Of a stretch of 64,000 nucleotides of DNA, positions 1 to 40,924 are shown piece after piece. Positions within the stretch are counted from its first letter, which is position 1, and each line of letters begins with the position of its first letter. The notes beneath the pieces were generated by a model that saw only the letters and a program-made list of their open reading frames with translations, made no database searches and had not been told where the DNA came from. Made by a program: the position numbers and the translations under genes. The DNA is from Bacillota bacterium (GTDB lineage Bacteria > Bacillota > Clostridia > Christensenellales > Christensenellaceae), in assembly GCA_023393165.1 (NCBI GenBank), contig JAEWMJ010000057.1, positions 94,500-158,499 of the forward strand, read 5' to 3'.

Positions 1-391
1 AAAAAATCATTGACACCGCAAAAAGCGTATAACATTTCATCAGGATCTCGGTTTGATCCCCCGAATCATTCATGATGCCGAATACTGTACTCATGAGCAG
101 AGAAATCACGGTTCCAATTCCGGTCAGAATCAAAGCCAGGATGTATTTGCTTAAAACGACGTCCTTCCTGGTTACAGGCAGTGACAGCACGTATTTATCC
201 CATTTCGCGGCAGCGTCGCAGGAAAAGGAATTGATCACCATCGTGGAGCATAGCAAAACAATCATCAATTGGATTAAATCGGTCGTACCCCTTAGTGCAA
301 ATCCAAAGAACATAAAAAAAGCTATAATGAAGAAAACCGTGCGGCTGTTTTTGGACATTGTGATAAAATCTTTCAGCAACAAACCTTTCAT
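1..391 (-). CDS. ABC-2-type transporter permease, partial (C-terminal part lies beyond window start)
   Basis: The minus-strand frame stays open to the window edge, so it is absent from the ORF track. The ATG at 391-389 overlaps the TGA of the upstream ATPase gene (ATGA). The translation MKGLLLKDFITMSKNSRTVFFIIAFFMFFGFALRG...LALILTGIGTVISLLMSTVFGI is rich in TM helices. It is the third gene of a GntR-ATPase-permease arrangement. Confidence 0.6.
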   Translation of the reverse strand, partial: MKGLLLKDFITMSKNSRTVFFIIAFFMFFGFALRGTTDLIQLMIVLLCSTMVINSFSCDAAAKWDKYVLSLPVTRKDVVLSKYILALILTGIGTVISLLMSTVFGIMNDSGDQTEILMKCYTLFAVSMIF

Positions 392-1251: not shown

Positions 1252-1653
1252 TTATTCCTCCTTGTATAAAACCTGAAGAATCTCCGTCAATTCTTCAAGG
1301 CTGATCCCGCTGCTTCTCGCAACGTTTACAGCATTCTGCAGGTATTCTTCCGCCTGCCTGAGCTGCGCCTCGCGTATCAGCGAAACATTCCTTACTGCGA
1401 CAAAACTCCCTTTCCCCGTTACGGTTTCAATAAAGCCGTCCCTCTCCAGATCTTCATAGGCGCGTTTGGTGGTAATCACGCTGATTCTGAGCTCCTTTGC
1501 AAGGAGCCTCATGGACGGCAGCGGGTCTCCTTCGGACAATGCGCCGCTTATAATCATATTTTTGATCTGCAATGTGATCTGTTCATAAATGGGCTTATCG
1601 CTCGCATTCCGGATAATAATATCCACCTGGTCCCCCCTGTTTGCCGCACTCAA
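1252..1653 (-). CDS. GntR-family transcriptional regulator (short YtrA-like subtype)
   Basis: Winged-helix segment PLPSMRLLAKELRISVITTKRAYEDLERDGFIETVTGKGSFV. Only 133 aa with a short C-terminal helix region, and it is the first gene of an ABC operon, as in YtrA-type systems. Confidence 0.85.
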   Translation of the reverse strand: MSAANRGDQVDIIIRNASDKPIYEQITLQIKNMIISGALSEGDPLPSMRLLAKELRISVITTKRAYEDLERDGFIETVTGKGSFVAVRNVSLIREAQLRQAEEYLQNAVNVARSSGISLEELTEILQVLYKEE

Positions 1654-1818: not shown

Positions 1819-2295
1819 TTAAAATTTATATCCGCATTCACCGCAGAATTTTGTTTCAGGAGGGTTGCTGCCTCCGCAATCCGGGCAGACCAGGTTTGAC
1901 GGCAATCCAAGCCTGCACCCGCATTCGTTGCAGAACTTGACGCCGGGTTCAAACACGGCTCCGCACTGCGGACAGGTGGATGCCTTGCGCGCGTCTTCTT
2001 CCTGCTTTTCCTTCTGCGTTTTTTCGTCCTGCGCAGCTTTAAGTTCGTCTTCCACCCGGCACATCCTGGCCTGAACGCCGCCCAGCTCGTTTACTATGGC
2101 GGCGTATTCCGGATAATTGCAGATAGAACCGTATAATTTTTGCCCTATGCTGGCGTACAGGCCCGTTTCTTTTTCCTGCAGTTCATTCAGTTCGTTCTGC
2201 AGGGTAAATATCTTTGTGTTGGGGTCGTCCTGAGGCATAAATGCGCCCAGGCCTTTCATCAGTCCTCCAAGGCCTCCCAAAAAATCATTTGCCAT
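1819..2295 (-). CDS. Coiled-coil protein with Gly-rich amphipathic N-terminus and C-terminal double zinc ribbon
   Basis: N-terminus MANDFLGGLGGLMKGLGAFM, a central Q/E/K-rich helix, and C-terminus CPQCG..x..CNECG and CPDCG..x..CGECG. Last gene of a tightly packed six-gene minus-strand operon. Confidence 0.7.
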   Translation of the reverse strand: MANDFLGGLGGLMKGLGAFMPQDDPNTKIFTLQNELNELQEKETGLYASIGQKLYGSICNYPEYAAIVNELGGVQARMCRVEDELKAAQDEKTQKEKQEEDARKASTCPQCGAVFEPGVKFCNECGCRLGLPSNLVCPDCGGSNPPETKFCGECGYKF

Positions 2296-2329
2296 ACTTA
2301 TCTCCTCTCATGGTATCCTTATTTGGAAT

Positions 2330-2998
2330 TCAGTCCAGCCTGAAGCCGCATTCCCCGCAGAACTTCACCGTTTGGGGAACCTGCGCGCCGCATTGCGGAC
2401 ATTTTCTGAGCGAAAGGCTGGCTCCGCAATTGTTGCAGAACTTTCCTTCTCCCGACGGTTTCCCGCACACCGGGCAAACGGTGGTCTTCTTTTCTATACT
2501 GCCTGTAAAAACCGTGGTTTGTTCCGCCTTTTGCTGAATATCCCTGATCATTTTTTCGGATCTGGCTTTGGCAACCGCAACATTCTGCAGAGGCGCGCAT
2601 TCGACGCACAGGCCTTCTTCGTCATTGTAATCCGCGTCGCACACATACTGGTGGCAGCCGTGGCAGCGGTGGAAATGCTGCTTTGCCTCGTTCTGCGCTC
2701 TTTCAAATGCTTTTTCGTGCTCTTTCTGCCATTCCGGGCTCATTCCCTGAAACCGTTCGGATAAAATGTCCTCTCCCCGGCCGATCCCATAACCGATATC
2801 GCCGGCTACTCCGCCGAACATGCTGCCCAGCGCGGAAGCGCCCCTGCCCAATCCCCTGAGCAAAGAGCCTTTTTTATACGTTTGGGATTCAATAAAAGAC
2901 GATTTATAACCATCCTGGCAGATATCGCAGTAAAATGTAAACTGGAATCCCGCTTCCGTGCTGTTGTCCTCGTAATTCCGCGTAAATGATTTCAGCAT
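2330..2998 (-). CDS. Cys-rich domain protein (paralogue of 4750..5115) with C-terminal double zinc ribbon
   Basis: Start moved to the ATG at 2998, which follows AGGAGG by 9 nt; the ORF-track start at 3052 would overlap the upstream gene. Shares FT+N..DNST..GFQF.F.CD.C and HF.RC..C...VCD.D.N.E.G.C..C.P blocks with ORF 4750..5115. C-terminus CPVCG..CNNCG and CPQCG..CGECG. Confidence 0.7.
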   Translation of the reverse strand: MLKSFTRNYEDNSTEAGFQFTFYCDICQDGYKSSFIESQTYKKGSLLRGLGRGASALGSMFGGVAGDIGYGIGRGEDILSERFQGMSPEWQKEHEKAFERAQNEAKQHFHRCHGCHQYVCDADYNDEEGLCVECAPLQNVAVAKARSEKMIRDIQQKAEQTTVFTGSIEKKTTVCPVCGKPSGEGKFCNNCGASLSLRKCPQCGAQVPQTVKFCGECGFRLD

Positions 2999-3018
2999 AA
3001 CAATTTGCCTCCTGAATT

Positions 3019-3348
3019 TTATTTTTTTAATTTTTTCCCGCAGGCGGTACATCTTTCATTCTGGAAAAACTGTATGCTTCCGCACCTTTTATACGAACAT
3101 ACAATTGTCAAAGACGCGCCGCATTTTTCACATTTGCTTCCCACAAACGTTTTTTGCCCGCATTTTGGGCAGTCGATTGTAAGCGGCCTGCCGCAGCCGC
3201 CGCAGACAATATCACCGCGTTTTATCTCGCGCAGGCAGGTGGGACAACTTAAGATAAAAGGGGATGTGCTCCCGCATTTTGGGCAGAAACGTACATCCCT
3301 GTCTATTAATTCCCCGCATTGCATGCACGGCTGTTTATAAAATGCCAT
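3019..3348 (-). CDS. Protein made of four tandem zinc ribbons (109 aa)
   Basis: Eight CxxC-type pairs: CMQCG/CPKCG, CPTC/CGGCG, CPKCG/CEKCG, CSYKRCG/CTACG. Confidence 0.7.
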   Translation of the reverse strand: MAFYKQPCMQCGELIDRDVRFCPKCGSTSPFILSCPTCLREIKRGDIVCGGCGRPLTIDCPKCGQKTFVGSKCEKCGASLTIVCSYKRCGSIQFFQNERCTACGKKLKK

Positions 3349-3368
3349 CGCAATGTCTCCTGCTTTAC

Positions 3369-4217
3369 TTAGTTATACTCGGTTCCTTCAACATAAGCGC
3401 TTAATTTCCCGTCTTTCAGGGTGTACCAGTCCTCCGAATCCGTGGCAAATCCGGCTCCAACGCCGTCGCCTTTCCCGAATATGGAAGCGGGCTCTGAAGA
3501 TCCGCTGCGGACAACGCCGATTGAACCCGCTGTGCCGTCCATATTGGTTACAACCTTTACGGTTTCGTACGTGCCGTCATCGTTTTGTATATAAACCTGG
3601 CCGGCATATCCGTCCTTGATCTTCGTATATTCCGAAAGCAGATAGAATTCACCGTTCTGCGTCAATGCAGAGCTCATCGATTGTAATCCCGCGTCATACT
3701 TTGATTCTATCTTTACGGTGCCGCCGTCCGCATCGGCGTACTCAACCGTATAGGTGTTTCCGTTATTCGAAATTTTAACGCCTTCCATTCCAAGCATTGC
3801 AAGCGCCGCGGCCGATCCGCTGCTGTCTTCCATGCCGCAAACCGTCAGAGGGATCAGCATGAGGTCGGCAAGAGATATTCCCAATATATCCATATTTGCG
3901 GTCATGGACATCTCCGCCAGTCCGGCGTCTTCGCCGAGCGCAGTGGACATGTTTGTAACCAGGTTGGATTTTGCTTCCGTATACTTTCCGTAGGATTCAT
4001 ACAGCGGCAGGCTTCCGCCCCCCGAAGTATCCGATACGGCGCTGTCCGCCGCTTCAGACGCTGTGCCGTCATCTTCCGGAATTTCCAAACTATCCCCATC
4101 TACCTGCATAGCGGATTTTACCGCGCTTTCCATTGCCTTGGGCAAGCCGCCCATACAGCCGGTGGCCGCAACAAGCAGCAACGAAAGGATAAGCGCGATG
4201 CATAGAATTTTTTTCAT
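3369..4217 (-). CDS. Lipoprotein of unknown function
   Basis: Signal peptide MKKILCIALILSLLLVAATGC with lipobox A-T-G-C, followed by a D/E/S-rich linker and a beta-rich body. Confidence 0.75.
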   Translation of the reverse strand: MKKILCIALILSLLLVAATGCMGGLPKAMESAVKSAMQVDGDSLEIPEDDGTASEAADSAVSDTSGGGSLPLYESYGKYTEAKSNLVTNMSTALGEDAGLAEMSMTANMDILGISLADLMLIPLTVCGMEDSSGSAAALAMLGMEGVKISNNGNTYTVEYADADGGTVKIESKYDAGLQSMSSALTQNGEFYLLSEYTKIKDGYAGQVYIQNDDGTYETVKVVTNMDGTAGSIGVVRSGSSEPASIFGKGDGVGAGFATDSEDWYTLKDGKLSAYVEGTEYN

Positions 4218-4247
4218 AAATTTACCTCCAAGCCATTATATAACTGT

Positions 4248-4727
4248 TTATTTATTGAGTTTGCCCGAGAATTTAGCGGCTAATTTACCGAAAACAGGCA
4301 TGGCATACTCTTCATATTTATAGGCCTTTACCATGGCAATGATTCCAAAAATCAGGAAAATAAGGCCGATAATGCCCATAATGATACTGGCGGCGGCTAC
4401 TCCCGCCCATGCGCCGAAATAGCTGTTCAGATCATAAGGATTCGATGCAATGGCTGCTGCCGTTGCGGCGCCTGCAATGCCGGCGATAATGTTGACAATG
4501 ACATCGATGATTGCGAAAATTAAGAAAAGCGCAAAAGCCTGAAGGGCGTGGAATTTTACGAGATTGCTGTTCTTTTCCAAATAGAAGAATATCAGCGGGA
4601 GCAACCATGAGACATATTGCACAAACGGTATAAAACTGAGAATGACGGCCGAGACATATGTCAACAACGCCATTACGTTTGCATCCATATTGCCTATTGA
4701 CGACTTGTGTGGTTCATAAATTTTCAT
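4248..4727 (-). CDS. Small multi-pass membrane protein, DUF4870-like
   Basis: At least three hydrophobic helices. The NVMALLTYVSAVIL and KFHALQAFALFLIF segments resemble my recollection of the DUF4870 family. Confidence 0.7.
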   Translation of the reverse strand: MKIYEPHKSSIGNMDANVMALLTYVSAVILSFIPFVQYVSWLLPLIFFYLEKNSNLVKFHALQAFALFLIFAIIDVIVNIIAGIAGAATAAAIASNPYDLNSYFGAWAGVAAASIIMGIIGLIFLIFGIIAMVKAYKYEEYAMPVFGKLAAKFSGKLNK

Positions 4728-4749
4728 TTAATCTTCCTCCTAAAATTAT

Positions 4750-5115
4750 TTATTTATTCAATCCGGCTTTTGAGCCGGCTTGTGTATCCAGTCCTAACGG
4801 CGAGCAACAAGCGCACATGCCTGTTTCGGCATTGAAGTCTTCGTCGCAAACAACCATTCCGCAGAAAGCACAGCGGTTGAAATGGTTTTTCGCTTCTTCA
4901 TTGGCAAAAAAGAGCGCCTGCTGATACTCGGATTTCATTACCTCGGCATATTTTTTGCCGAACCTTTTATACCACGGCTTCCGGCTCCCCGACGATTGAA
5001 TAAACACCGTTTCGTACGGTTTGCCGCACAGATCGCAAAAGAATACGAATTGAAATCCGTCTTTCGTACTGTTGTCTATGAATTTTTTTGTAAAGGCCTT
5101 TGTCATACGCGCCAC
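4750..5115 (-). CDS. Cys-rich domain protein (stand-alone copy of the N-terminal domain of 2330..2998)
   Basis: FTKKFIDNSTKDGFQFVFFCDLCGKPY and NHFNRCAFCGMVVCDEDFNAETGMCACCSP align block-for-block with ORF 2330..2998. First gene of the operon. Confidence 0.65.
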   Translation of the reverse strand: MARMTKAFTKKFIDNSTKDGFQFVFFCDLCGKPYETVFIQSSGSRKPWYKRFGKKYAEVMKSEYQQALFFANEEAKNHFNRCAFCGMVVCDEDFNAETGMCACCSPLGLDTQAGSKAGLNK

Positions 5116-5285
5116 CCCACAAATAAAAGGCGTTCGGATAACCGTATCATATTGGAATTTGCATAAAAATGCGTCACCCCGCGCTAAACATCCGTAATTA
5201 TTTTGGGGTGAAAACTATTTTAGGCAGGAAAAACTGAAAAAATGATTAAAAAAAGGTTAAATAATAAACAAATCACCATATTTTA

Positions 5286-5314
5286 TTGAAGAAAAACGAC
5301 AAATATCTTATAAT
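5286..5314 (+). promoter_or_regulatory. Sigma-A-type promoter for the SBP-sensor gene pair
   Basis: TTGAAG (5286-5291), a 17-nt spacer, then TATAAT (5309-5314), 60 nt upstream of the ATG at 5375. Confidence 0.45.
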
Positions 5315-5374
5315 GGTAACAGTTATAATTTCACTGGATTAAGCTATATCTGCTGACTAGGGGGACAAAGCCTG

Positions 5375-6865
5375 ATGAAAAAAATTATTCATTTTTTATC
5401 CTTCCTCATTGTTTTGGTTTGCCTTTTTCCGTTTTTGTTTGGCTGCACTTCCGGTTTTGTATTCTCGCAGGATCAGCCCACCACCATTACCGTATGGCAT
5501 TTTTATACTTCGGGACTCAAAACGGCGTTCGAGGATATGATAAACGATTTCAACAATACGTACGGAAGTGAACACAATATCATTGTGGAGGCTGAAAACC
5601 AGGAGGACCTGGACACGCTGGCCGCAAGCATCATCGACTCCAGCAAAAAAAAGGTCGGGGCAGACAAACTCCCCAATATCATATTCGCATATACGGGTAC
5701 GGTCCTGGAACTTGACCGTCAGGACTTTGTCGCCAATCTGGACGACTATTTCACAAAGGACGAACTTTCCAGATACTATCCTTCTTTTCTGGAGGAAGGG
5801 AGAATCGGTGAAGAAAACAAACTGGAATGTTTCCCTGTAGCCAAATCCACCGAACTGCTTTTTATAAACAAAGCGGATTTCGACGAATTTGCAAAAAGCG
5901 CGAATGATTCCGGATTGTACGGAAAAGTATCTGCCGACGATTTTTCCACATTTGAAGGCATTGCAAATCTCTCGGATATATATTACAAATGGACGGATGC
6001 AAAAACACCTTCCGTCCAAAATGACGGAAAATCTTTTTTTGGAATGGACGCCACGCCGAATTTCATATCTGTCGGCCTGCGCCAGTTGGGAAACGTCCCG
6101 GTAACCGTATCCGGTGCAACGGGAACATTTTCTATGGATAAGGAAGCCGCTAGACGCCTCTGGGGTTTTTACTACAGCAATATTGTAACCGGAAGGTTTG
6201 CGGAAATCGGACGCTACCGGGCGGATGATATGAAAACGGGCGATCTGGTCGCCTATCTGGGTTCATCGGGAGGCGCAACCTATTTTCCCGAAGAAATAAT
6301 GCCCGGCAGTCCGGAGGCCCGGAAGACCGATCTGCTGGTATTGCCTTACCCTGTATTTCAGGGCGCGAAAGCAGTTTCCATTCAGCAGGGCGCCGGAATG
6401 TCCGTGATAAAAACGGATAAGCAGCATGAAGAAGCGTCGGCGCAGTTTATTAAATGGTTCACCGACCCTGCGCAGAATGTTAAATTCTCCTATATGTCCG
6501 GTTACCAGCCGGTCCAAAAAGCGGAATTTATCCGTGACGCGCAGGAAAAAGAAATTGCCGGGCTTAAAAACGCCACGGATACGGCGCTTCAAAATACGCT
6601 TGCGGCGCTTCAGACGGCGTCCCGCCAGTTTAACGATTACGAGCTGACGGTGGATAAGGAATTCACCGGCAGTTATGATGTGCGCAACATGTTCGGCATG
6701 ACCCTCTCCGAGGCCGCCAAAAACGCAAGAAGTTCTCTTTTGGTTGACCTTCAGGCAGGCAAGACGCTGGATGAGGCCCTGCCCGGCTACCTTGACTCAG
6801 CGAACTTTGAAAACTGGTACAATCAGATTCAAAAGGAATTCAGTAATCTGACGGCCGGCGAATAA
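5375..6865 (+). CDS. Extracellular solute-binding lipoprotein (ABC family-1 type sugar binder)
   Basis: Signal peptide with lipobox LFGC. Size of 496 aa and the sequence style (ITVWHFYT, KLPNIIFAY, FYYSN) are typical of family-1 SBPs. No cognate permease or ATPase genes are adjacent. Confidence 0.8.
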   Translation: MKKIIHFLSFLIVLVCLFPFLFGCTSGFVFSQDQPTTITVWHFYTSGLKTAFEDMINDFNNTYGSEHNIIVEAENQEDLDTLAASIIDSSKKKVGADKLPNIIFAYTGTVLELDRQDFVANLDDYFTKDELSRYYPSFLEEGRIGEENKLECFPVAKSTELLFINKADFDEFAKSANDSGLYGKVSADDFSTFEGIANLSDIYYKWTDAKTPSVQNDGKSFFGMDATPNFISVGLRQLGNVPVTVSGATGTFSMDKEAARRLWGFYYSNIVTGRFAEIGRYRADDMKTGDLVAYLGSSGGATYFPEEIMPGSPEARKTDLLVLPYPVFQGAKAVSIQQGAGMSVIKTDKQHEEASAQFIKWFTDPAQNVKFSYMSGYQPVQKAEFIRDAQEKEIAGLKNATDTALQNTLAALQTASRQFNDYELTVDKEFTGSYDVRNMFGMTLSEAAKNARSSLLVDLQAGKTLDEALPGYLDSANFENWYNQIQKEFSNLTAGE

Positions 6866-6869
6866 AACG

Positions 6870-9800
6870 ATGGAACTATTCGGCAGATTCAAACGGAACC
6901 CGGGGTCTCTTCGGAAAAAAATAATAGGACCGCAGATTATATTGCTCTTCATTCAGCTTGCCATTATTTTGTCCTGTATTTCGGGACTCGGACTGCTCCG
7001 AAACGCGCGGGACAATGAATTTGACAAGCTTGCCGCTTCCGTTCAAAGCCGCGCCCTTCAGGTGCAGAAATATTTCAATAACATTTCAATCAACGCCGGT
7101 TACGCATCCGACAAAATTCAGAACAGCATGCAGGATATTCTTTCAGAAAAGCGCCTTGAATCCGCAGATGAATTGCTGCAAAACCAGGGTCTTGTGGAAG
7201 CATTTGAGAAAGATTCCCTGCCCGCTCTGGTAAACGCTCTGGAATACTCTGAAACTTCCGGAGTTTTTATCGTACTCGATACAAACAACAACCCCGGCAC
7301 CAAGGCCGCGCTTTATCTGCGCGATACCCGGCCGGAAACCGTAAGCGCATCGGACTTGCTTTATGTGCGCGGACCTTATTCCATCGCAAGGGACCTGTCC
7401 ATCCCACTGGACAGCGATTGGAGCTTTGAGCAGAAATTTACCGGTTCGGAGAGCGATTATTATGTGAATCCCTGGAATGCAGCGCTGAATAAGAAAACCG
7501 ATATATCCGACCAATGCGGCTACTGGAGCGGCGCATATCAATTTTCAGAGACCGGACAGAGAATCATATCGTATACCCTTCCGCTTTTGGACCCAAACGG
7601 TAAACCTTTTGGCGTTTTCGGATTTGAAGTGAATGAAGATCTGCTGATAAAAAAACTGCCCTCGGACGAAATTCCATATCAAAACGGGTTTTACGCATTA
7701 TATAAAAGTGCTGATCCCGGCAGCCTGTCCGATAGTACGGTTTTCAGCGGAGCATACGCAAGCATTCTGAAGGGAGACCCGGTTTCCATCCGTCCGGCAG
7801 GTTACGGCACTCCCGCCCTCATACAACTTGCAGTGGACCGGGATCACCCGCCCATGCTAGGAATAAAAAACATACTGGAATTATACAGCCCGGGTTCCTG
7901 CTTTGCCGGCGATCAGTGGATACTGGCGGGTATCGTGCCGGAATCCCAGCTTTTATCGCTCTGGTACGGGATCATTCAGGTACTTGCGATCGCTTTTATT
8001 TTATCATTTGCCATCGGCCTGGCCGGTATATTCGGCTCAGGCTGGGCTTTTGCGCGTCCCATAGCCGCACTTGCCAAAAAGGTCCGGGCGGCCAATCCAA
8101 AAGAACCTATTGCACTCGGTAAAACAAACATCGTGGAAATTGACGATCTGACGGCGGCCCTGGAAAAAATGAGCAGCGACGTCGCGCAGGCGGCTTCCCG
8201 TATGTCCAAAATAATCGGTCTGGTGGGTTTGCCGCTTGGAGGGTATGAAGCGGATTTTCAGAACGGAATTGCTTATTTGACAGATTCCATGTTCGACCTT
8301 TTTGGGCTGCACAAGGAAAAATCCGGATCTAATACCCTGCCCCTGTCCGAATGGAAGGCCCTCCTGACGGGCATCTTAAACGACAAGGAAGAAGGGTTTG
8401 AGGACGTCTACCGCTATAATCCTTCGCCCAAGAATGTTCGCTGGCTGCGAATCAAAACGGCCGTCATTTCGCCGCAGATCGAACTCGGTATTGTTCTTGA
8501 CGTATCGGAAGAAGTCCTTCATCAGCGTCAAAATGAATTTGCAAGGGATTACGATTCGCTCACCGGCTTTATGAACCGGAAAGCGTTTTTAAACAAATGT
8601 ACCGAACTGATAGAGGCCGATCCGTCCGCCTCGGGTATTCTGCTTCTTGCCGATCTGTATTTCATCCGGAGCCTTCATGCGTCGGGCGAACTGGAAAACG
8701 AAACGCTTCTGCGTATCGCAGGACTTTTTGGAGAGTTCAGGCAATTCGGGGGCATATTGTCCCGTATTTCCGGCTATGAATTTGTGGTCTATATCCATGG
8801 CTGCGGCGATGCTCCGGGCATCATGGAATTTGCGCAGAAACAGTTCGGTTCCCCGCTTGCAATCAGGCGGATGGATGGGCAGATCCAGGAGTTTTTCTTT
8901 TCAATAGGCGCATGCCGTTATCCCGAGGACGCCAGAAATGTGGAAGACCTCATTTATTTCGCAGATTTTGCCCAAAACGAAGCCCAACGCCAGCCCCGGA
9001 AAGGTATCGTACCCTTCCAGATGGAAAACTATAACCAAAACAATATTATGGCGCAAAAAAACAACGCGTTTTATGAAATATTGTCTTTAAGGCAGCTTAA
9101 TATCAATTTAATTCCTATTATGGACGTCAATACGGGAAATATCATGGGTTACGACGCTCTTGTGGACTACCGCAACAGCTTTATAAAAAAAGCGGAGGAC
9201 ATGATTGCAATGGCGCGCATCCACAACCGCCTTTTTGAACTCGAGCGGCTTACGATGATCAGCATACTCGAGTATATCCGTGAAAACTATCATGAACTGA
9301 ACGGCGCAAAAGTTTTCTTTTCTTCCCTTACGAACGAGGTCATACCGCAGAGCGAAATTCAAAAGGTAGACAAAATTTACGGGGCCCTTTACTCCTCCAT
9401 CGTATTTAATCTGACCGATACCGAACACTGCGATAAACAGATATTCATAGATAAGAACAGAGAACTTAAAAAACGCGGTGTTGCAATTGCGATTGACCGG
9501 TACGGTACGGTCAATGCCAGCGAACTGCTGCTTCTAGATTTAAAACCGGGTTACCTGCGCATGGATCCTTCCATCATACAGGACGTGAACCTGGATCCCA
9601 ACAGGCATCAGCTTCTCCAGGCGCTCCTCTCCTACACCACCACCCGTGGGATCAGGACAATGGCCGTGGGCATAAGAACCAGGGAAGAACTCGAAACCGT
9701 TATCAAAATGGGCATCGATTATGTACAGGGCCCCTATCTTTGCGAACCCATGTCCGGGATCATTTTGCCGGAGAGTACCGCCGCACAGAATATCCGTATA

Positions 9801-10256
9801 AAAATCAAGGATGTTGAAAACTATAAATTCACACTTTCCGACGGTGACGAGCGGTACGCGCGTCTGCTAAAACTATTGCCGGCAGGTTCGCAGCTGACCG
9901 AACGCGAAAAAATGATTCTGCATCAGATTTGCATGGGAGAACTGAACAATGTGATCTCATCCGACCTCGGCATATCCGTCAACACTTTGAAAACGCATAT
10001 CCGCAACATTTACAGTAAATGCGGCGTAAAGAACAGAAAAGAACTGCTGATGTTGTCAGAATCCGGTGAAAGCCCGGACAGCGAACTCACCCTCAGGGAA
10101 AAAGAGATCCTTCGTTTGATCATTCTGGGCAAAACGAATCAGGAAATCACATCAGCGCTTTGCATCAGCAACAATACGGTACGCGTGCACATCTGGAACA
10201 TCTGCACCAAACTGGGCGTAAAAAACCGGAACGACCTGATGGAGATACGGCTATAA
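6870..10256 (+). CDS. Membrane sensor: TM-Cache-like-TM-linker-PAS-like-degenerate GGDEF-degenerate EAL-2x LuxR HTH
   Basis: TM helices at aa ~20-43 and ~362-394. Periplasmic segment with the Cache-like motif ISYTLPLLDPNGKPFGVFGFEV. The domains below were identified by motif. The start lies 4 nt after the SBP stop. Confidence 0.85.
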   Translation: MELFGRFKRNPGSLRKKIIGPQIILLFIQLAIILSCISGLGLLRNARDNEFDKLAASVQSRALQVQKYFNNISINAGYASDKIQNSMQDILSEKRLESADELLQNQGLVEAFEKDSLPALVNALEYSETSGVFIVLDTNNNPGTKAALYLRDTRPETVSASDLLYVRGPYSIARDLSIPLDSDWSFEQKFTGSESDYYVNPWNAALNKKTDISDQCGYWSGAYQFSETGQRIISYTLPLLDPNGKPFGVFGFEVNEDLLIKKLPSDEIPYQNGFYALYKSADPGSLSDSTVFSGAYASILKGDPVSIRPAGYGTPALIQLAVDRDHPPMLGIKNILELYSPGSCFAGDQWILAGIVPESQLLSLWYGIIQVLAIAFILSFAIGLAGIFGSGWAFARPIAALAKKVRAANPKEPIALGKTNIVEIDDLTAALEKMSSDVAQAASRMSKIIGLVGLPLGGYEADFQNGIAYLTDSMFDLFGLHKEKSGSNTLPLSEWKALLTGILNDKEEGFEDVYRYNPSPKNVRWLRIKTAVISPQIELGIVLDVSEEVLHQRQNEFARDYDSLTGFMNRKAFLNKCTELIEADPSASGILLLADLYFIRSLHASGELENETLLRIAGLFGEFRQFGGILSRISGYEFVVYIHGCGDAPGIMEFAQKQFGSPLAIRRMDGQIQEFFFSIGACRYPEDARNVEDLIYFADFAQNEAQRQPRKGIVPFQMENYNQNNIMAQKNNAFYEILSLRQLNINLIPIMDVNTGNIMGYDALVDYRNSFIKKAEDMIAMARIHNRLFELERLTMISILEYIRENYHELNGAKVFFSSLTNEVIPQSEIQKVDKIYGALYSSIVFNLTDTEHCDKQIFIDKNRELKKRGVAIAIDRYGTVNASELLLLDLKPGYLRMDPSIIQDVNLDPNRHQLLQALLSYTTTRGIRTMAVGIRTREELETVIKMGIDYVQGPYLCEPMSGIILPESTAAQNIRIKIKDVENYKFTLSDGDERYARLLKLLPAGSQLTEREKMILHQICMGELNNVISSDLGISVNTLKTHIRNIYSKCGVKNRKELLMLSESGESPDSELTLREKEILRLIILGKTNQEITSALCISNNTVRVHIWNICTKLGVKNRNDLMEIRL
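8532..9014 (+). other. GGDEF-like domain, degenerate
   Basis: DSLTGFMNRKAF entry motif. The signature is SGYEF (nt 8769-8783) instead of GG(D/E)EF. The metal and GTP-contacting ND..GH..GD block is replaced by LHASGELENETL. Confidence 0.75.
9051..9755 (+). other. EAL-like domain, degenerate
   Basis: YDALVDY (nt 9150-9170) replaces EAL. IDRYG replaces DDFG. RMD replaces K.D. AVGIR replaces AEGVE. The terminal YVQG is retained. Confidence 0.75.
9882..10055 (+). other. LuxR/FixJ-type HTH domain 1
   Basis: LTEREKMILHQICMGELNNVISSDLGISVNTLKTHIRNIYSKCGVKNRKELL. Confidence 0.85.
10077..10247 (+). other. LuxR/FixJ-type HTH domain 2
   Basis: LTLREKEILRLIILGKTNQEITSALCISNNTVRVHIWNICTKLGVKNRNDL. Confidence 0.85.
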
Positions 10257-10333: not shown

Positions 10334-10447
10334 CTGAAAGCCCCAAATACAAGGCATTTTGAGCATTGCGACGTAAGCGTAGTACATCCTACGCTGAGGA
10401 GCAAGCGGAAAAATAACACAGTAGTTGGGGTTTATCAGCAGCCTGAA
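10334..10447. repeat. Intergenic repeat element, short copy (~114 nt)
   Basis: Shares three blocks with 26540..26790: 39/41, 14/14 and 39/43 identical by hand alignment. Internal hairpin agcgtagta/ctacgct. The ends are mutually complementary (ccccaa/ttgggg, ctga/tcag, gct/agc). It sits between two convergent gene ends. Confidence 0.75.
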
Positions 10448-10517
10448 TCTTTCTTTTGAAAAAAGAAAGATTCTACCAAAGAAAACCAATTATAATTTAT
10501 ATATGTCCCGGCAGCGC

Positions 10518-12038
10518 TCACATGCTGGCTTCATTCAAGTGATTCTGTATATTTTCAAGCACGTCTTCTTCCTTTATAAGCTCCAGGAAGTTGTTTACCA
10601 CATCCGCGTCAAACTGCGTCCCGATTCCCAGCTTCAGCTGGTCGATCGCTTCCTGCAGGGTAAAACGCATGCGGTACTGCCTGTCCGAGGTCATGGCGTC
10701 AAAAGCGTCCGCCACCGAGATGATCCGCGCCGCAAGCGGGATCGCATCGCCCCTCAGCCCGTCGGGATATCCCGTTCCGTCAATTCTTTCGTGATGGTGG
10801 CGCACAATAGGCACAACATCGCTGAACATGGAAACAGCTGAAAGTATCAGCGCGCCTTTCATCGGATGCCTTTTGATCTCCTCATAATCGCTGCTGCTCA
10901 GCTTATCGGTTTTCAGCAATATATCGTCGGCCGTTCCGATCTTTCCTATATCGTGGAAAACCCCGCCGATGCGCAGAATCTCCAGTTCGTTATCACTCAG
11001 GGCAAACCTTTTTCCGATCTGCACGGAAAAATAGGCGACCCTGTCCGAATGGCCCCGCGTGTATACGTCCTTGGCATCCACCGCCAGCCGCAGGGCTTCA
11101 ATCGTATCCATATACCTGGTTTTCAGCTGGGCATACGTACGGTTGAGTTCCTCATTCTTTACGTTTACAAGGGAATGCAAAAACGCGTTGTTGATGGAGG
11201 ATGCGGCCTGGCCCGCGTAAATCTCCAAAAGTTTCATGCCTTCTTCCGCCACATCCCTGCTGCTCACATAAATTACGCCGATCGCCTTACGCAACTCGTT
11301 GATAAGCGGAAGTATCACGCCGTCGGGCAGAATAGTGATTTCCAGTTTCATGCGCGCGGTGCCGATAGCTTCCATCAGCTTGGGGTCAAGCATGTTCATA
11401 AAGCTCTGGACATTCACGTTGTACATGCCGATTCCCCTGAATATACTCTTATCCGTACTGCCGATCTCGGTCAGGTTATCCATGAGGATAAAAGCGTCCG
11501 TGCTGTTGACCAGAGGCAGTATCCTGACCAGAATCTCTTCCAGAATATTGCCGATGGGCTGCAGCTGGTATATCTTGGGCACAGCCCCAAGAATGCTGTT
11601 GAGTCCGTCCCTGAATTTCTTGATCGTCCGCATCTGGGAGATGGATTTTATCCCGGATTCTACTAGAAGCAGCAGTTGATCCAGCCTTTCGCTTTTTTCG
11701 CAGTAAGCCTGGATATCCAGCATTTTAATGGTGTCGATCGGCGGAGCCAGATCCTTGTATCCGGTCAGAAGCAGGATGTAAAGTTCCTTGTCGAAACTCC
11801 GTATATTTTCCACCACTTCGTCCCCGTGCATGGGAAGCATGAAATAATCCAATATCAAAAGATCGTAATGGACTTCTTTCAATTGCTTTAACCCCTCCAC
11901 GGGGTTCGTATAGCCGTCTATTACGTACCCCATTCTTCTCAAAAGCGAGGATACCGAATCGATGATGCCTTCGTCATCGTCAATGATCATCAACCTGTAA
12001 TCTTCATTAATCTCTTCCTGAAGCTTATTCTTACGCAT
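10518..12038 (-). CDS. Response regulator: REC - GAF-like linker domain - HD-GYP phosphodiesterase
   Basis: REC motifs IIDDDEG, LLILDYFMP, LLLTG and YCEKS. HD-GYP motifs RGHSDRVA, FHDIGKIG and HHHERIDGTGYPDG. The start overlaps the kinase stop by 8 nt. Confidence 0.9.
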   Translation of the reverse strand: MRKNKLQEEINEDYRLMIIDDDEGIIDSVSSLLRRMGYVIDGYTNPVEGLKQLKEVHYDLLILDYFMLPMHGDEVVENIRSFDKELYILLLTGYKDLAPPIDTIKMLDIQAYCEKSERLDQLLLLVESGIKSISQMRTIKKFRDGLNSILGAVPKIYQLQPIGNILEEILVRILPLVNSTDAFILMDNLTEIGSTDKSIFRGIGMYNVNVQSFMNMLDPKLMEAIGTARMKLEITILPDGVILPLINELRKAIGVIYVSSRDVAEEGMKLLEIYAGQAASSINNAFLHSLVNVKNEELNRTYAQLKTRYMDTIEALRLAVDAKDVYTRGHSDRVAYFSVQIGKRFALSDNELEILRIGGVFHDIGKIGTADDILLKTDKLSSSDYEEIKRHPMKGALILSAVSMFSDVVPIVRHHHERIDGTGYPDGLRGDAIPLAARIISVADAFDAMTSDRQYRMRFTLQEAIDQLKLGIGTQFDADVVNNFLELIKEEDVLENIQNHLNEASM

Positions 12039-13884
12039 GAATCACTTCCCCTTCCACGTCCATAGGAATCGATATAAAGAACTCCGTGCCCACATTTTCC
12101 TGCGATTCAAACCACATGTTTCCCCTGAACATACCCTTTATTGTTGAATACGAAATATAAAGGCCTATGCCCGTCCCGTTTTTCCCTTTGGTCGTAACCA
12201 TTTTTTTAAACAGGCTGTCCATTACGCTTTTATCCAGCCCGCCTGCGAAGTCTTTGATGGAAAACACAATATTATTGTTATCCTGGTTGATGCGGAGAAT
12301 AATTTTGCCTTTTTTTCCCTTATATGCCTGAATGGCGTTCACAATGATATTGTCAAATATCTGAACCAGGCTGTTTACATCGCCTTTGATTGTAATTTTA
12401 TCATCTATATTGATTTCTTTCAACAATACGCAGTTCTGCCGGATCAATTCGTACTTCATCAGAATATCCACGCGGTGTATCAGTTCATGCAGCGTAAAAA
12501 CCCCGGTTAATGTGGAATTCAGTTTTACCGCCTGATCCTTTACCGTTGAGATTACATCCGACATATAGGCGATATAGGTCCGGATTTTTTTAATTGCGAC
12601 ATCCATTTCTCCGGCTATTTCATGATGGTCTTCCACTGTCACTTCAGGATCTCCCACGGATTTATCGTATTCCTGCACAAGCACTTCAAGTTGTCCAAGC
12701 GCTCCCGACGCAGATAGGATGGGCGTTTTGAGGTTGTGCGCGATCCCGCCTACCAATTCTCCCAGAGAAACCAGACGTTCTTTTTCCATCATGATCGCCT
12801 GGTTTTCCTGAATGGTGTCAAAGTCTTTCTTGCGCTGTGTGATGTCTTTTAAAAGAATAATTGTCGCAACATACTGGTTGCCTGCAAACACAGGCGTAAA
12901 CTCAACTTCAAAATATTTATTATATTCCTTCCCTCTTTTTAAGTTAAGTTCAGTTTTCACGATTTGATTCGTTTCCTTGGTTAGTTTTACGTCTTTTAGC
13001 ACCATATCTGCGCTGATCTCGACAGGATCAAAATATATTTTGAGCAGATTATACAGATTTTCATTCTGTTTGATATTATGAAAGGCCGAAAAATTTTTAA
13101 TAAAACTTTTATTAAAGTCAATGATATTTAGTTTTTCATCCACGACAATATAGCTGTCTGATATCCGGTTTACAACTGTTTTCAGGGCTACGGGAGTGAT
13201 CTTCATCAGGTTGAACTTAAGCATGCCTACCATATAACATACGATCGCGGTCAACATGGCGATGGGCGTGGCAAATATATTCAGCCACGGCACACCCAAG
13301 GTATACAGCAGGTTAACTAATAACGGCAATATGCTGCCTATAATCATCACAGAGGCTTGTTTAACCGATATACCGGTATTTTTAACAGAAAAAAACAACA
13401 CATATCCCAGCCCCATCAGCAGCATAAAATAAGAATATATGGTGTGAACATAAAAATACCATCCCATTACGATCGTAGGCCTTACAAACCCAAACGTATA
13501 TTGTATGTAAAACCAGTGATGATAATTATTTGTGAACGCCACTACGAGCGTTAAAGCTGGGATTACAAATAAAAATATATACTTCCAGTTGAAATCTATT
13601 CTGGAATAAGCAAAGGAACGGCCGATCAAAAAAATTTGTACAGGCAGCAAACTGGATCCGATATATGTAAAATACTCCATCCATATAATTAAAGGACTGT
13701 CGGGATCTTTATCCGCAAAAAACGCTTCAAAAAAAACAAAAAGACAAATGACGGTTATTTCCATGACAGCAGCAAGAAAAATCCGGTGAAGCTGCGTCTT
13801 GTTTCTTGTCAGGGCGATCAGAACCATAAGAAATACCGAAATGCCTATGCAAAAAATCAGTAGTAAATAAGTTCCCGAATCCAT
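12031..13884 (-). CDS. Sensor histidine kinase with N-terminal 7-TM domain and PAS-like domain
   Basis: About seven hydrophobic helices in aa 1-230. H-box LVGGIAHNLKTP. ATPase motifs NIIVNAIQAY, DFAGGL and GTGIGLY. Starts 8 nt after the NRPS stop. Confidence 0.9.
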   Translation of the reverse strand: MDSGTYLLLIFCIGISVFLMVLIALTRNKTQLHRIFLAAVMEITVICLFVFFEAFFADKDPDSPLIIWMEYFTYIGSSLLPVQIFLIGRSFAYSRIDFNWKYIFLFVIPALTLVVAFTNNYHHWFYIQYTFGFVRPTIVMGWYFYVHTIYSYFMLLMGLGYVLFFSVKNTGISVKQASVMIIGSILPLLVNLLYTLGVPWLNIFATPIAMLTAIVCYMVGMLKFNLMKITPVALKTVVNRISDSYIVVDEKLNIIDFNKSFIKNFSAFHNIKQNENLYNLLKIYFDPVEISADMVLKDVKLTKETNQIVKTELNLKRGKEYNKYFEVEFTPVFAGNQYVATIILLKDITQRKKDFDTIQENQAIMMEKERLVSLGELVGGIAHNLKTPILSASGALGQLEVLVQEYDKSVGDPEVTVEDHHEIAGEMDVAIKKIRTYIAYMSDVISTVKDQAVKLNSTLTGVFTLHELIHRVDILMKYELIRQNCVLLKEINIDDKITIKGDVNSLVQIFDNIIVNAIQAYKGKKGKIILRINQDNNNIVFSIKDFAGGLDKSVMDSLFKKMVTTKGKNGTGIGLYISYSTIKGMFRGNMWFESQENVGTEFFISIPMDVEGEVIHA

Positions 13885-13892
13885 TTCCCCTC

Positions 13893-16800
13893 CTACGGCT
13901 CGCAGATTGTTGTAAGAAAACGTGTTACATATTCAGAAGATACCTGCGGCCAGTCAAACCCACAATGATGGAGTAATTCTGCGGTTTTGTCAGACCGGAC
14001 TTCAATATTTTGTCCCATGACATCTTGCCTGGAAATATCGTTAATAATACCTGATAGTTTTTTGCCTTCATTCTGCCGACTGATGGCGCGTATGGTCCGA
14101 TCAAAAACTTTCGTTGGAACAAACGCCGGCGCCGGCAAGATCTCTCGGGACCAAGCGATTAAATCTTTCATGAAGATCCTGTTAGGATTATATAAATGGT
14201 ATACAACAGGGCAAATTCCGCCCACTTGTGATAAAATCAGCATTGCTTTTGCGCAAGAGTCCACAGGGGTCAACTCCAGCAGCAGATCCTTTAACTTTTC
14301 CGGCAGAACCCCGATTTCAAATATGGATTTTAATCGGTTTGCAAAGGCATTGTTCTCCTTTGCCATCTGAAACTTTCCATCGATTGTACGGGCGGTCAGG
14401 TTTCCGGCTCTAAAGATCCGGGCGTCCAACCCCTCTTCACGGGCCTTGTGCACTATTCCTTCAGCAAAAAACTTGCTTTTCACATATTCGTTTGAACCGT
14501 ACTCCTGGCCGATGTAGTAACAGGTTTCGTCAAACACGAACGTCTTGGCGTCTTCCCGCACATACTTCCCGGATACGCTCATTGTGGAAACATGCAATAG
14601 TGGCTTGCTTTCCCTCAAACAAAATTCAACAATATATTTTGTTCCCAGAACATTGATTTCTTCAAATTTCTCGGGCATTCCATAATGGCTGGTGATCGCC
14701 GCGCAGTGAATCACGGTTTTAATATCAGCAGCGATTTCCGCACTTCTTCCGTCGGGCATTCCAAGATTGGGACTGCAAATTTCCCCGCTCACCGCCTGCA
14801 CATTTTTAAGAATCTTTTCCGCCGCGTCTTTCCCGAAGTAAAACACAAGGGAATCCTTCAATTTTTGCCGGGCGTTCTCGTCATTATCCGCTCTAATTAT
14901 ACAATAAACACGCGATTGATACAAGCCGACAAGCTCGGATAGAACATGCGCGCCTAAAAATCCGTTTGCGCCGGTCAGCAGCGTACAGCTCAGGTCCGCC
15001 GGCTGGCAATCCGCACTTCTGGGCGTCAATGGAATGCCTTTTTTAGAGGACGCATAAATATCATATTTAGAAGGCGCCGCTTGTTTTAAAGAATGTTTGC
15101 TGTCGATATGTTCGCAAATTGATTCAAGCGTCTGCATTTCGTAAAAATCCTGCGTCCCAATTTCAAATCCATATTTCCATATGGCGGCTTGCACCTGGAT
15201 CACCGCGAGGGAATCTCCGCCCAAATGGAAAAAGTTGTCCGCAGGGCCGACGCTTTGAACCTTTAAAACCTGCTTCCAGACTTTAGCCATTTTCTTTTGG
15301 GTATCGCTCGTCAACACCTTTTTCCGGACGGTATTCTTTCGGCTGCCGGTCTCTGTCCCGGGATTGGGCAGTGCTTTCCTGTCCAGCTTTCCGCCGGGAG
15401 TCATGGGGAAGCTTTCCAGCGAAATAAAATGCGAAGGGATCATATAAACCGGCAGGCGTTTTTTCAGGCTTTCCCTAAGCGCCGTCTCATCCACATCCCC
15501 ATTTTGGGTGAAATATGCGCAAAGATATTTGTTCTCTTCTTTTCCACAAGCCAAAACAACCGTTTTATCAACGCCTTTTATATCCAGTATTGCACTTTCA
15601 ATCTCTCCAAGTTCTATGCGTAGACCGCGGATTTTTACCTGAAAATCGCTGCGTCCCAGGCAAACGACTTCGCCGCTTGGCTGGTAGGCGCAGATGTCGC
15701 CCGAATTGTACATGATTCCCTCGGCAAACGGATTCCTCAGATATCGCTCCCGGGTCAGATCTTCCCGGTTAATGTACCCCCGAGAAACGCCTTTTCCCGC
15801 AATATACAGCAAACCCGGGCACCCAAGCGGAACAGGGATAAGGTCGTCGTCCAGTATATAGTACTGCAGATTGGCTGCAGCTTTCCCCACAGTGATATTC
15901 GACGTATGCGTCAAATCCTTAAAAGACGAATAAACGGTCGTTTCAGTAGGCCCGTATACGCTGACGATGCGCGCGCGGGAATATTTTTTAAGCTTCCTTA
16001 AAAGATCAGGCGGGAATGGCTCTCCTCCGTGAACGATCAGTTTTAGATGAATCAGATTTTCCCTGAAAGTTTTGTCACTCATCAATATTTGCATGCGCGA
16101 CGGTGTGGTCTGCAAAAAATTTGCTCCGCCCAACCGCATCGCCGGGACCAGAAGATGCGGCTGACGGCATTCGTCATCAGTGCACATGATTACGGCCGCG
16201 CCAAAAAACAATGAGATAAGGGAGTCCGAAACAAAAATATCAAACGAAATAGATGATATGGACGCAACTACCGTGTCTTCGGAATAAAATTTATTTTGTC
16301 CGATCATTTCATACAGATTCAGAAGGCCGGATACTGTAACCATCACCCCTTTGGGCCTGCCTGTCGATCCAGAGGTATAGATCACCAGTGCCAGATCGCC
16401 GGGCCCGCTTGCTATCACAGGCCGGTACTCACCCGCATTTTTATCCACAGTTCCTGAAAACAATATGGTCCCCTGAAAGCCGCACTTATCGGGATCGTCC
16501 GTAATCAGCACATCGGCTTTGCTGTTCTGAAGCATATAGGTTTTCCGTTCTTCAGGATAAAAAGGATCTACCGGCATATAAGCGGCGCCCGCCTTCAGCG
16601 TTCCCAGTATGGCGCACATCATATCCAAAGACCGGTTCACGCTGATTCCGACGATGCGGTTCCTTCCAACCCCAAGCTCTATTAATTTTTTTGCATAGGC
16701 TCCGGCCGCACGGTCGAGCTCCGAAAAAGTCATTCTCCGGCCTTTGCAGATCAGAGCGATTTTATCAGGATACCGGTCGGCCGCCCTCTCAAACAGGCGG

Positions 16801-33649: not shown

Positions 33650-33650
33650 T

Positions 33651-40845: not shown

Positions 40846-40924
40846 TATGCCCGCCTCCCAATAATATATCTAGGATTATTATGAGTTTTAAGACAGATAG
40901 AGTCAAAGGTGCCAATTAGATCTC

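Follow-up and report, generated by a model that had tools for sequence, protein, structure and literature searches.

The NspS-MbaA and ScrB-ScrC pairs are GGDEF-EAL receptors stimulated by a solute-binding protein (SBP) (PMC8050422), and ChiS is a membrane-embedded DNA-binding sensor that is controlled by an SBP (bioRxiv 10.1101/2020.01.10.902320; PMC12704726). SBPs that stimulate sensor kinases typically have their genes among signalling genes instead of transporter genes (PMC8050422). For PdeL, DNA binding and transcription are believed to depend on the state of the EAL domain, and alternative oligomeric states of this domain have been proposed to govern the LuxR helix-turn-helix (HTH) domain (PMC5052742). 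YdiV is an EAL protein that serves as a scaffold in transcription control and does not bind cyclic di-GMP (c-di-GMP) (PMC3510510). Here we describe a gene pair in a 64,000-nucleotide (nt) stretch of a genome from the Christensenellaceae (Bacillota, Clostridia; GenBank assembly GCA_023393165.1, contig JAEWMJ010000057.1, positions 94,500 to 158,499), hereafter the window. In this pair an SBP gene directly precedes the gene of a protein of 1128 amino acids (aa), the regulator, which joins an outside sensor, GGDEF-like and EAL-like domains and two LuxR-type HTH units in one chain. We consider it reasonably probable that this operon specifies an SBP-controlled transmembrane transcription regulator, in which a dead GGDEF-EAL pair is used as signal relay. 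The regulator is made of known parts in a new combination, and the gene pair is real and functional-looking.

The two genes are the long open reading frames (ORFs) of this region. The stop codon TAA of the SBP gene (6863-6865) is followed by AACG and then by the ATG of the regulator at 6870, a spacing of 4 nt that an earlier reading of the same DNA made without database searches (the sequence-only reading) had given correctly, and this spacing suggests that the genes are translationally coupled. The top promoter-like site of the region, which matches 10 of 12 consensus positions, lies upstream of the SBP gene, and both of its hexamers are kept in two related contigs (L001 and L024), where the DNA around them diverges. 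Between the regulator gene and the convergent gene downstream lies a perfect inverted repeat, a possible bidirectional terminator, which the terminator scan passed over because no T-run follows it. With this promoter and this repeat at its two ends, the pair looks like a self-contained two-gene operon, whose predicted features are:

5286..5314, plus strand: putative sigma-A-type promoter TTGAAG-17-TATAAT, 10/12 matches, 60 nt 5' of the SBP start
5375..6865, plus strand: SBP gene, ATG start, 496 aa, SBP_bac_8 lipoprotein whose signal peptide carries the lipobox LFGC (Cys24)
6870..10256, plus strand: regulator gene, ATG start, 1128 aa, transmembrane protein
6870..6998, plus strand: cytoplasmic N-terminus and first transmembrane segment, TM1 (aa 1-43), from hydropathy and a long helix from residue 14 in the AlphaFold2 (AF2) model
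6999..7955, plus strand: extracytoplasmic sensor with dCache fold (aa 44-362), from the AF2 model and Foldseek, Pfam dCache_1 being sub-threshold
7956..8045, plus strand: second transmembrane segment, TM2 (aa 363-392), from hydropathy and the AF2 helix 363-406
8046..8216, plus strand: HAMP-like helix-loop-helix linker (aa 393-449), from the AF2 helices 363-406 and 422-449
8217..8534, plus strand: conserved cytoplasmic module with no fold assigned (aa 450-555), from family-invariant residues and its conservation
8535..9005, plus strand: degenerate GGDEF domain (aa 556-712), Pfam GGDEF 2.5e-11, signature SGYEF
9078..9755, plus strand: degenerate EAL domain (aa 737-962), Pfam EAL 1.6e-29, motifs DALVD, NLTD, DRYG, RMD and VGIR
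9882..10055, plus strand: LuxR/GerE HTH unit 1 (aa 1005-1062), first of two Pfam GerE stretches, NCBIfam and AF2
10077..10247, plus strand: LuxR/GerE HTH unit 2 (aa 1070-1126), Pfam GerE at 1072-1124, PDB 1fse and AF2
10445..10473, no strand: perfect 13-bp inverted repeat GAATCTTTCTTTT-GAA-AAAAGAAAGATTC between convergent genes, read directly from the sequence

The start of the regulator at 6870 is backed by the conserved N-terminal SLR motif of its family, an invariant L14 and a K/R-rich segment. In some public records, 1104-aa members of the 90% cluster to which it belongs, the protein begins 24 codons later, inside TM1. The frame is intact and collinear in L001 (protein P0002), with 84% aa identity and a ratio of nonsynonymous to synonymous substitution (dN/dS; Nei-Gojobori, window against L001, dS ~0.9) of 0.10, and it is not a chance ORF. 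Near-identical copies (at least 90% identity) are present in JGI/IMG, NCBI, ENA and Logan assemblies, where the IMG label reads 'NarL/FixJ family response regulator / EAL domain-containing protein'.

By hydropathy, the regulator has a cytoplasmic N-terminus, TM1 at about 19-43, an outside region from 44 to 362, TM2 at about 363-392 and a cytoplasmic part from 393 to 1128; the six K/R residues among the first 18 aa fit the positive-inside rule. On this predicted topology a membrane anchor and a cytoplasmic DNA-binding domain are united in a single chain, as in a transmembrane transcription regulator. The general layout, a membrane-anchored protein with an outside sensor, GGDEF-like and EAL-like domains and two LuxR units, had been proposed from the letters of the sequence, and Pfam, hydropathy and AF2 agree with it. 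The further description of the sensor as Cache-like is not established by its sequence and is supported by its predicted fold. Pfam dCache_1 (PF02743) reaches 19.5 bits against a gathering cut-off of 45, over residues 204-275 only, but the AF2 model of residues 1-450 (mean predicted local distance difference test, pLDDT, 74.7) has a long stalk helix and two PAS-like alpha/beta modules between the two membrane segments, followed by a return helix through the membrane. This model was built from an alignment of 13 sequences, a sensor-only profile word-index search having returned just seven proteins, and its loop 153-192, which is invariant in sequence (R151, G168 and W184), is poorly predicted. 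The top Foldseek matches in the PDB are the dCache ligand-binding domains of TlpQ, PacA, Tlp3 and PctA (probability 1.0; TM-scores 0.45-0.67, normalised to the target). There are 88 matches with E<=0.001, and among the 50 listed nearly all are double-Cache-type sensors of chemoreceptors or histidine kinases. The predicted fold therefore supports a dCache assignment for the outside domain.

The linker that follows TM2 has no Pfam HAMP match. It is 96% identical to that of P0002, which makes it the most conserved segment outside the HTH units, and its motif EIDDLTAA is common to the whole family described below. The next module (aa 450-555) has no Pfam match either and contains the family-invariant residues W525, R527, G540, D544 and V545. 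Both former enzyme domains are recognized by their profiles well above the cut-offs, Pfam GGDEF (PF00990) with 44.0 bits against 23.8 at residues 560-710 and Pfam EAL (PF00563) with 103.4 bits against 31.3 at residues 737-960. The AF2 model of residues 725-1128 (pLDDT 85.2) shows a TIM-barrel-like EAL fold (pLDDT ~90) and then two four-helix units.

These two units are the LuxR-type HTH domains. Pfam GerE (PF00196) scores 104 bits over two stretches, at about 1007-1061 and 1072-1124, and NCBIfam HTH models match at about 1007-1061 (the MalT C-terminal model) and 1068-1124. Matches in the PDB include GerE (1fse, to unit 2) and the C-terminal domains of VraR and EsrB, and AF2 gives each unit the four-helix HTH fold; two complete units after the EAL-like domain had also been noted in the sequence-only reading. 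The units share 52% identity and are therefore an internal tandem duplication. Their recognition helices differ (NTLKTHIRNIYSK and NTVRVHIWNICTK), so the two half-sites that they would read need not match. A search of the literature turned up neither a GGDEF-EAL-LuxR-LuxR protein nor two LuxR HTH units in tandem within a single chain.

On the input side, the SBP (Pfam SBP_bac_8, 1e-19) carries an N-terminal hydrophobic segment followed by its lipobox and is by these features a predicted lipoprotein. In the PDB, its family profile comes distantly closest to SBPs for sugars and of the UgpB type (glycerol-3-phosphate) rather than to polyamine binders, with partial matches at E 1e-9 to 1e-12. A sugar is a possible ligand, and the extracellular sugar signal that had been suggested earlier is weakly supported.

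In 20 of the 21 loci that hold both genes, the sensor gene is directly preceded by a homologue of the SBP gene, at distances from an overlap to a 117-nt gap, and an SBP gene is also found upstream in three loci with a truncated or broken sensor gene (L005, L018 and L023). Pairs linked in this way, with 25-40% identity, occur in Acetobacterium species, Oscillospiraceae, Lachnospiraceae, Evtepia and unclassified Clostridia. The six loci with precomputed Pfam calls (L001-L005 and L024) contain no gene for an ABC permease or ATPase; the flanking ORFs of L006-L023 were screened by size and transmembrane-segment count only. In the window there is no BPD_transp_1 permease within 64 kb, and the one complete importer encoded there (51944-56819) comes with a Peripla_BP_4 SBP of its own. 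The statement in the sequence-only reading that no transporter genes accompany the SBP thus stands for the permease, with the qualification that an ABC ATPase gene is present at 388-1248 (minus strand). As this gene adjoins a GntR gene (1252-1653, minus strand), we read it as part of an exporter-type module and hence not as the partner of the SBP. The linkage of the SBP to a receptor rather than a transporter is shared with the SBP-dependent receptors NspS-MbaA, LuxP-LuxQ and CBP-ChiS, and the SBP is likely a co-sensor of the regulator, as the sequence-only reading had supposed; the conserved upstream placement across related loci supports this, except at L022.

At L022 (3613-11015, Marasmitruncus massiliensis) there is no SBP_bac_8 gene, and the sensor gene is divergent from a complete ribose-type ABC importer (Peripla_BP_4, ATPase and BPD_transp_2). 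The sensor may here have switched to a transporter-associated binding protein. This locus also favours the alternative in which the SBP of the window is an ordinary transporter component with its permease and ATPase encoded elsewhere, its adjacency to the regulator reflects co-regulation, and the dCache domain senses a small ligand of its own directly. Indeed, dCache domains usually bind their ligands directly, all top structural matches of our sensor are direct binders, the inspected sequence covers 64 kb of the genome, and the binding proteins ChvE and MBP act in both transport and signalling (PMC8050422). Set against this are the SBP-sensor order, which stays constant in several families of Clostridia at identities of 25-40%, the six annotated loci and the window without the matching transporter genes, and a gene placement that is typical of SBPs that stimulate sensor kinases (PMC8050422). 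We therefore regard a purely transport-related SBP as unlikely, and note that a transport role and a signalling role are not mutually exclusive.

The GGDEF and EAL domains have lost most of the residues on which their chemistry depends. In the GGDEF domain the signature reads SGYEF, and DLYFIRSLHAS stands where the family has DLDNLKYIND, with the DxLKxxN motif changed to DLYFIRS. Four of six key residues are lost, at positions where the family keeps SGDEF and DLDNLK at 88-99%, and the combination expected of a diguanylate cyclase (GG[DE]EF or SGDEF, with the D, N and K of DxLKxxND) is missing. For the EAL domain we compared ten core residues (E and R of EALxR, E, N, E, DD, K, E and Q), with the motifs aligned to the structure of active PA0575 (5m3c). 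Eight of the ten are changed (E->D, R->D, E->R, N->S, E->N, D->R, K->R and E->V), the first D of DDFG and the Q of QG being the two that remain, and the Q of QPI has become I. The list of core residues also draws on studies of RocR and TBD1265. These ten residues are reported to be essential for catalysis and for c-di-GMP binding (PMC3510510), and the regulator lacks the set that an active c-di-GMP phosphodiesterase requires. Alignments and the family census described below confirm the earlier readings of the motifs SGYEF, DALVD, DRYG and VGIR and the expectation that neither cyclase nor phosphodiesterase chemistry remains, 13 of 17 key residues being lost. The residues thus support the view that both domains are catalytically dead.

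Loss of catalysis need not mean loss of ligand binding, and the sequence-only reading had proposed that the regulator integrates c-di-GMP. In this alternative the degenerate domains would still bind c-di-GMP, as in FimX or LapD, and gate the LuxR units, joining the outside signal with the c-di-GMP level. Degenerate EAL domains are known c-di-GMP receptors, the degenerate domains of the regulator are under purifying selection, and c-di-GMP machinery is encoded nearby (a response regulator with an HD-GYP domain at 10518-12038 and an HD-GYP protein at 28994-30814). The best Foldseek match of the EAL model is the c-di-GMP-bound EAL domain of LapD (TM-score 0.83, normalised to the target), but active EAL domains score as well against the model as degenerate ones, and this likeness therefore cannot tell the two apart. 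The arginine of EALxR is retained in FimX and LapD, whereas the regulator has an acidic residue in its place. Two of the c-di-GMP contact residues that mark degenerate-EAL receptors of the FimX and LapD type, the Q of QPI and the R of E/K-x-L-x-R, have thus been replaced (Q->I and R->D). An RxxD I-site, which in receptors of the PelD and PopA type lies a few residues before the GGDEF signature, is absent before SGYEF (preceding sequence EFRQFGGILSRI) and is missing from the family consensus as well. Coupling of c-di-GMP binding by an EAL domain to LuxR-dependent transcription has a precedent in PdeL (PMC5052742), but the loss of 8/10 core residues, in addition to the Q of QPI, equals the decay of YdiV, which does not bind c-di-GMP (PMC3510510). 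Moreover, the former active-site positions vary among the three fused relatives (SGYEF/SSYEF, DRYG/DQYG, DALVD/DAFAD/DAYAD and QG/AG), which is unexpected for a ligand pocket and argues that the old active site no longer serves as one. A c-di-GMP-responsive transcription factor is, in our view, improbable, and the proposed c-di-GMP integration is not supported.

The origin of the regulator becomes apparent from its relatives. An exhaustive search of representatives returned 604 clusters with E<=1e-30. The best 150 of these 604 representatives have 748-1029 aa (mostly 950-1030), their matches end at query residue 956-986, and none carries a LuxR tail or reaches the LuxR region. They belong to a large family of Clostridia proteins of about 990 aa, encoded with an SBP and composed of dCache, SGDEF and EAL domains, in which the nearest named relatives of the regulator show 25-29% identity. 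In an alignment of 152 relatives with the window protein (153 sequences, 17 key positions), the family consensus keeps DLDNLK..D and SGDEF in the GGDEF domain (S 91%, G 98%, D 99%, E 99% and F 97%) and YEALMR, N, E..E, DDFG, K.D, EGVE and QG in the EAL domain (each at least 90%). No key residue is lost in 116 of the 153 sequences, one in 21, two in 10 and three or four in 3; the window protein has lost 13/17 and P0002 14/17, the remaining sequence being the truncated P0004. Since the parent family keeps its catalytic residues, the loss in the regulator is specific to its lineage, and the regulator descends from a widespread, catalytically intact family of SBP-linked dCache-SGDEF-EAL proteins.

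The fusion itself is carried by P0002 in L001, which has the same length and the same neighbours as the window protein, and by L024 (~75% identity), where it is annotated as three ORFs. L024 is interrupted by three single-base indels, of which two fall in homopolymer runs, and we take the contig name ctg49619l as a hint of a long-read assembly. With the three 1-nt indels removed, L024 shows the same pattern of purifying selection, including the codons past each break. The nearest outgroup, P0004 (37-40% identity), has the degenerate GGDEF motif SGNYL; its gene is broken inside the GGDEF domain, and the contig ends without covering the C-terminus. Word-index searches for further LuxR-fused members returned only P0002, P0033 and P0035, none of the 18 loci from a scan of GTDB genomes is fused to LuxR, and a scan of JGI metagenomes with the C-terminal 195 aa gave just two irrelevant short EAL matches.

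Every domain of the regulator is under purifying selection. Against the overall dN/dS given above, the values are 0.19 for the dCache domain, 0.04 for the HAMP-like linker, 0.05 for the unassigned module (aa 449-555), 0.09 for the GGDEF-like domain, 0.12 for the EAL-like domain, 0.03 for LuxR unit 1 and 0.02 for LuxR unit 2. The low ratios in all domains indicate that the dead enzyme domains are maintained and that the HTH units are the most constrained. It is very improbable that the gene is a decaying relic or an assembly chimera, that is, a functionless GGDEF-EAL pseudogene in the making with a chance LuxR fusion: the catalytic motifs are lost, L024 is split, P0004 is broken too and the fusion occurs in three related genomes only, but the 1128-codon frame is intact in two genomes at dS ~0.9 with a dN/dS of 0.10 overall and 0.02-0.03 in the HTH units, the L024 breaks are single-base indels followed by codons under purifying selection, and the same sequence recurs in several independent assemblies.

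How the LuxR units were acquired was considered as well. Capture of a neighbouring LuxR gene (a Rosetta-stone fusion) is suggestive and not systematic, with LuxR-type genes near the pair at few loci. At L012 (Evtepia metagenome-assembled genome) a 525-aa protein with about nine predicted membrane segments and a C-terminal GerE domain is encoded directly 3' of the SBP and dCache-GGDEF-EAL pair (11156-12733) and is a further LuxR-type regulator embedded in the membrane, at L013 (Acetobacterium bakii) an 873-aa GerE protein is encoded about 5 kb downstream of the pair, and at L003 and L016 a REC-GerE gene lies near the pair on the opposite strand. P0035 (L025, 1-1656) consists of TM1, a homologous sensor, TM2 and a single GerE domain, with neither GGDEF nor EAL. 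The called start of P0035 misses TM1, which is encoded in frame upstream, and the L025 contig is too short to show any SBP gene. The architecture of P0035, a minimal membrane-anchored LuxR-type regulator, indicates that the same type of sensor has been joined to a LuxR output in another lineage too.

Taken as an SBP-controlled transmembrane transcription regulator, the protein could work as follows. The ligand-loaded (or the empty) SBP would dock on the dCache domain, and TM2 and the HAMP-like linker would carry the signal across the membrane, the route taken in the enzymatic ancestors. In these ancestors, the signal would have altered the geometry of the GGDEF-EAL dimer and thereby tuned c-di-GMP turnover. 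In the regulator, the same rearrangement of an inert GGDEF-EAL scaffold would move the C-terminal pairs of HTH units, and their repositioning would switch DNA binding at promoters that can be reached from the membrane, with the protein staying in the membrane. Each chain would hold a built-in 'dimer' of HTH units, and since there are two per chain, a receptor dimer would present four. The output has probably shifted from second-messenger turnover to direct control of transcription, an evolutionary 'output swap'. More tentatively, and short of an even chance, the dead GGDEF-EAL pair may have become a purely allosteric transmission module and the LuxR units an intramolecular pseudo-dimer, with the receptor dimer reading an operator of four half-sites, which would make this a class of transmembrane regulator not yet described. 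A regulated proteolytic release of the LuxR part is conceivable.

Several observations weigh against an SBP-controlled regulator with this output. The fusion is known from three closely related genomes only (the window, L001 and L024), and the conservation of the LuxR tail thus spans a short distance (dS ~0.9); one of the three copies, that of L024, is broken into three ORFs as assembled. The representative search gave a further 96,755 matches with E<=0.001, among which lower-scoring GGDEF-EAL-LuxR proteins are possible. The inter-domain geometry of the AF2 model is unreliable (predicted template-modelling score, pTM, 0.65). Finally, no DNA target was found when the region upstream of the operon was aligned across the three genomes: no motif is common to this region and the promoter region of the nearby non-ribosomal peptide synthetase (NRPS) genes, and shared k-mers do not exceed chance. 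The only conserved non-coding block nearby, at 5119-5215, was considered as an operator of the regulator, but a role as promoter or leader for the divergent gene accounts for it more simply.

This block lies upstream of the divergent gene 4750-5115 (minus strand) and is almost invariant in the three genomes, whereas the intergenic DNA on either side diverges. Within the block lies an inverted repeat, TCACCCC-N24-GGGGTGA (5174-5211), with conserved arms and a variable spacer, and CACCCC occurs a third time as the ribosome-binding site of the gene on the minus strand. The sequence GCGYCACCCC is found only in this block, a count below the chance expectation for the window. A scan of 5050-5400 against Rfam gave no match. 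The block may act as an operator, conceivably one that the LuxR units bind, or form a hairpin in a leader RNA and so hide the ribosome-binding site.

If the proposed regulator works as described, it would demonstrate directly that a GGDEF-EAL conformational switch can drive an unrelated output. Transmission of sensory input through composite GGDEF-EAL proteins is still poorly understood, and in this protein the input and the body are kept, the chemistry is gone and a DNA-binding read-out has been added. Promoter activity would then report the conformational state of a GGDEF-EAL tandem, which could serve as a reporter and help to dissect the parent family. A practical limit is that the fusion is confined to three closely related and apparently uncultured genomes. 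The analysis also uncovered the large, uncharacterized Clostridia family of lipoprotein SBPs and dCache-SGDEF-EAL proteins, which are the apparent Gram-positive counterparts of NspS-MbaA.

Genes for cyclic-dinucleotide signalling are frequent around the operon in the window. An apparent operon (10518-21296, minus strand) that converges with the regulator gene encodes an NRPS, a histidine kinase and a response regulator. The NRPS has 2467 aa and the order C-A-T-C-A-T with a terminal reductase, the kinase has an N-terminal region with seven membrane segments (HisKA_7TM), and the response regulator (10518-12038) combines DUF3369 with an HD-GYP (HD_5) output; the start of its gene is also found beside the orthologue of the regulator in L001 and L024. 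Its gene content is that of a small NRPS cluster with an attached second-messenger phosphodiesterase module. Another protein of the HD-GYP type (HD_5, 606 aa), in which the N-terminal half of ~200 aa has no assignment, is encoded at 28994-30814 (plus strand).

Divergent from the SBP operon is a cluster (1819-5115, minus strand) for two double-zinc-ribbon (DZR) proteins, proteins of 282 and 121 aa with no family match, and a DUF4870 (MamF/MmsF-like) membrane protein; this cluster is syntenic in L001 and L024. Further away, an RsgI-like anti-sigma factor (379 aa, RsgI_M) is encoded within 32570-34370 (minus strand) together with an overlapping upstream ORF of 239 aa that has no Pfam match and may encode a SigI-type partner. 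A pemK RNA motif (Rfam RF02913, 59 bits; 41359-41437) lies near a large serine recombinase gene (39331-40845), and the segment that holds both (39331-41437, minus strand) is probably a small mobile element or a toxin-antitoxin locus.

The sequence-only reading had missed that the regulator is a lineage-specific derivative of a large, catalytically intact family and that precedents exist in NspS-MbaA, CBP-ChiS and PdeL. As the catalytic features are absent, the regulator falls outside the GGDEF and EAL families that are defined by enzymatic activity. On the output side, E. coli PdeL (YahA) is the only characterized single chain found with a LuxR HTH and an EAL domain (PMC5052742). PdeL is soluble, has one N-terminal HTH and an active, c-di-GMP-binding EAL domain, and lacks a GGDEF domain, a sensor and an SBP. 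In contrast, the HTH units of the regulator are C-terminal and doubled, its EAL domain is degenerate and the protein is membrane-anchored. The combination of a LuxR HTH with an active EAL domain that defines a trigger phosphodiesterase of the PdeL type is therefore found here only in its HTH part, and the order of the domains is reversed. YdiV (STM1344), like the regulator, has kept the EAL fold despite the loss of 8/10 core residues, but it is a stand-alone EAL protein that sequesters FlhD4C2 and has no DNA-binding domain or sensor of its own.

On the input side, ScrB-ScrC of V. parahaemolyticus resembles the window pair as a membrane GGDEF-EAL receptor that is stimulated by an SBP. In NspS-MbaA of V. 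cholerae, as in the window, the gene of an SBP_bac_8-type SBP lies beside that of a protein with two membrane segments and the order dCache-like domain, linker, SGDEF-GGDEF and EAL, and the SBP serves signalling and not transport (PMC8050422, PMC8079147). The parent family shares the gene order and the SGDEF signature with this pair; the likeness is one of architecture, and orthology is not claimed. Unlike NspS, the SBP of the window is a predicted lipoprotein, in a Gram-positive-type Clostridia host, and is nearest to sugar and UgpB-type binders rather than polyamine binders. The output of MbaA is c-di-GMP turnover, whereas in the regulator both enzyme domains appear dead and the output would be the two LuxR HTH units.

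ChiS has until now stood for the few transmembrane transcription regulators that are controlled by an SBP, a group to which the protein described here would add a case. In CBP-ChiS of V. cholerae, as proposed for the regulator, the SBP acts outside and internal enzyme domains relay the signal to a C-terminal DNA-binding domain while the protein is in the membrane (bioRxiv 10.1101/2020.01.10.902320; PMC12704726; PMC11856585). The relay of ChiS is an active histidine kinase with a receiver, phosphorylation controls DNA binding, and the HTH is cryptic and not of the LuxR type (PMC8092284). In the regulator, by contrast, the relay would be an inert GGDEF-EAL pair, and the predicted DNA-binding part is a duplicated, canonical LuxR/GerE HTH.

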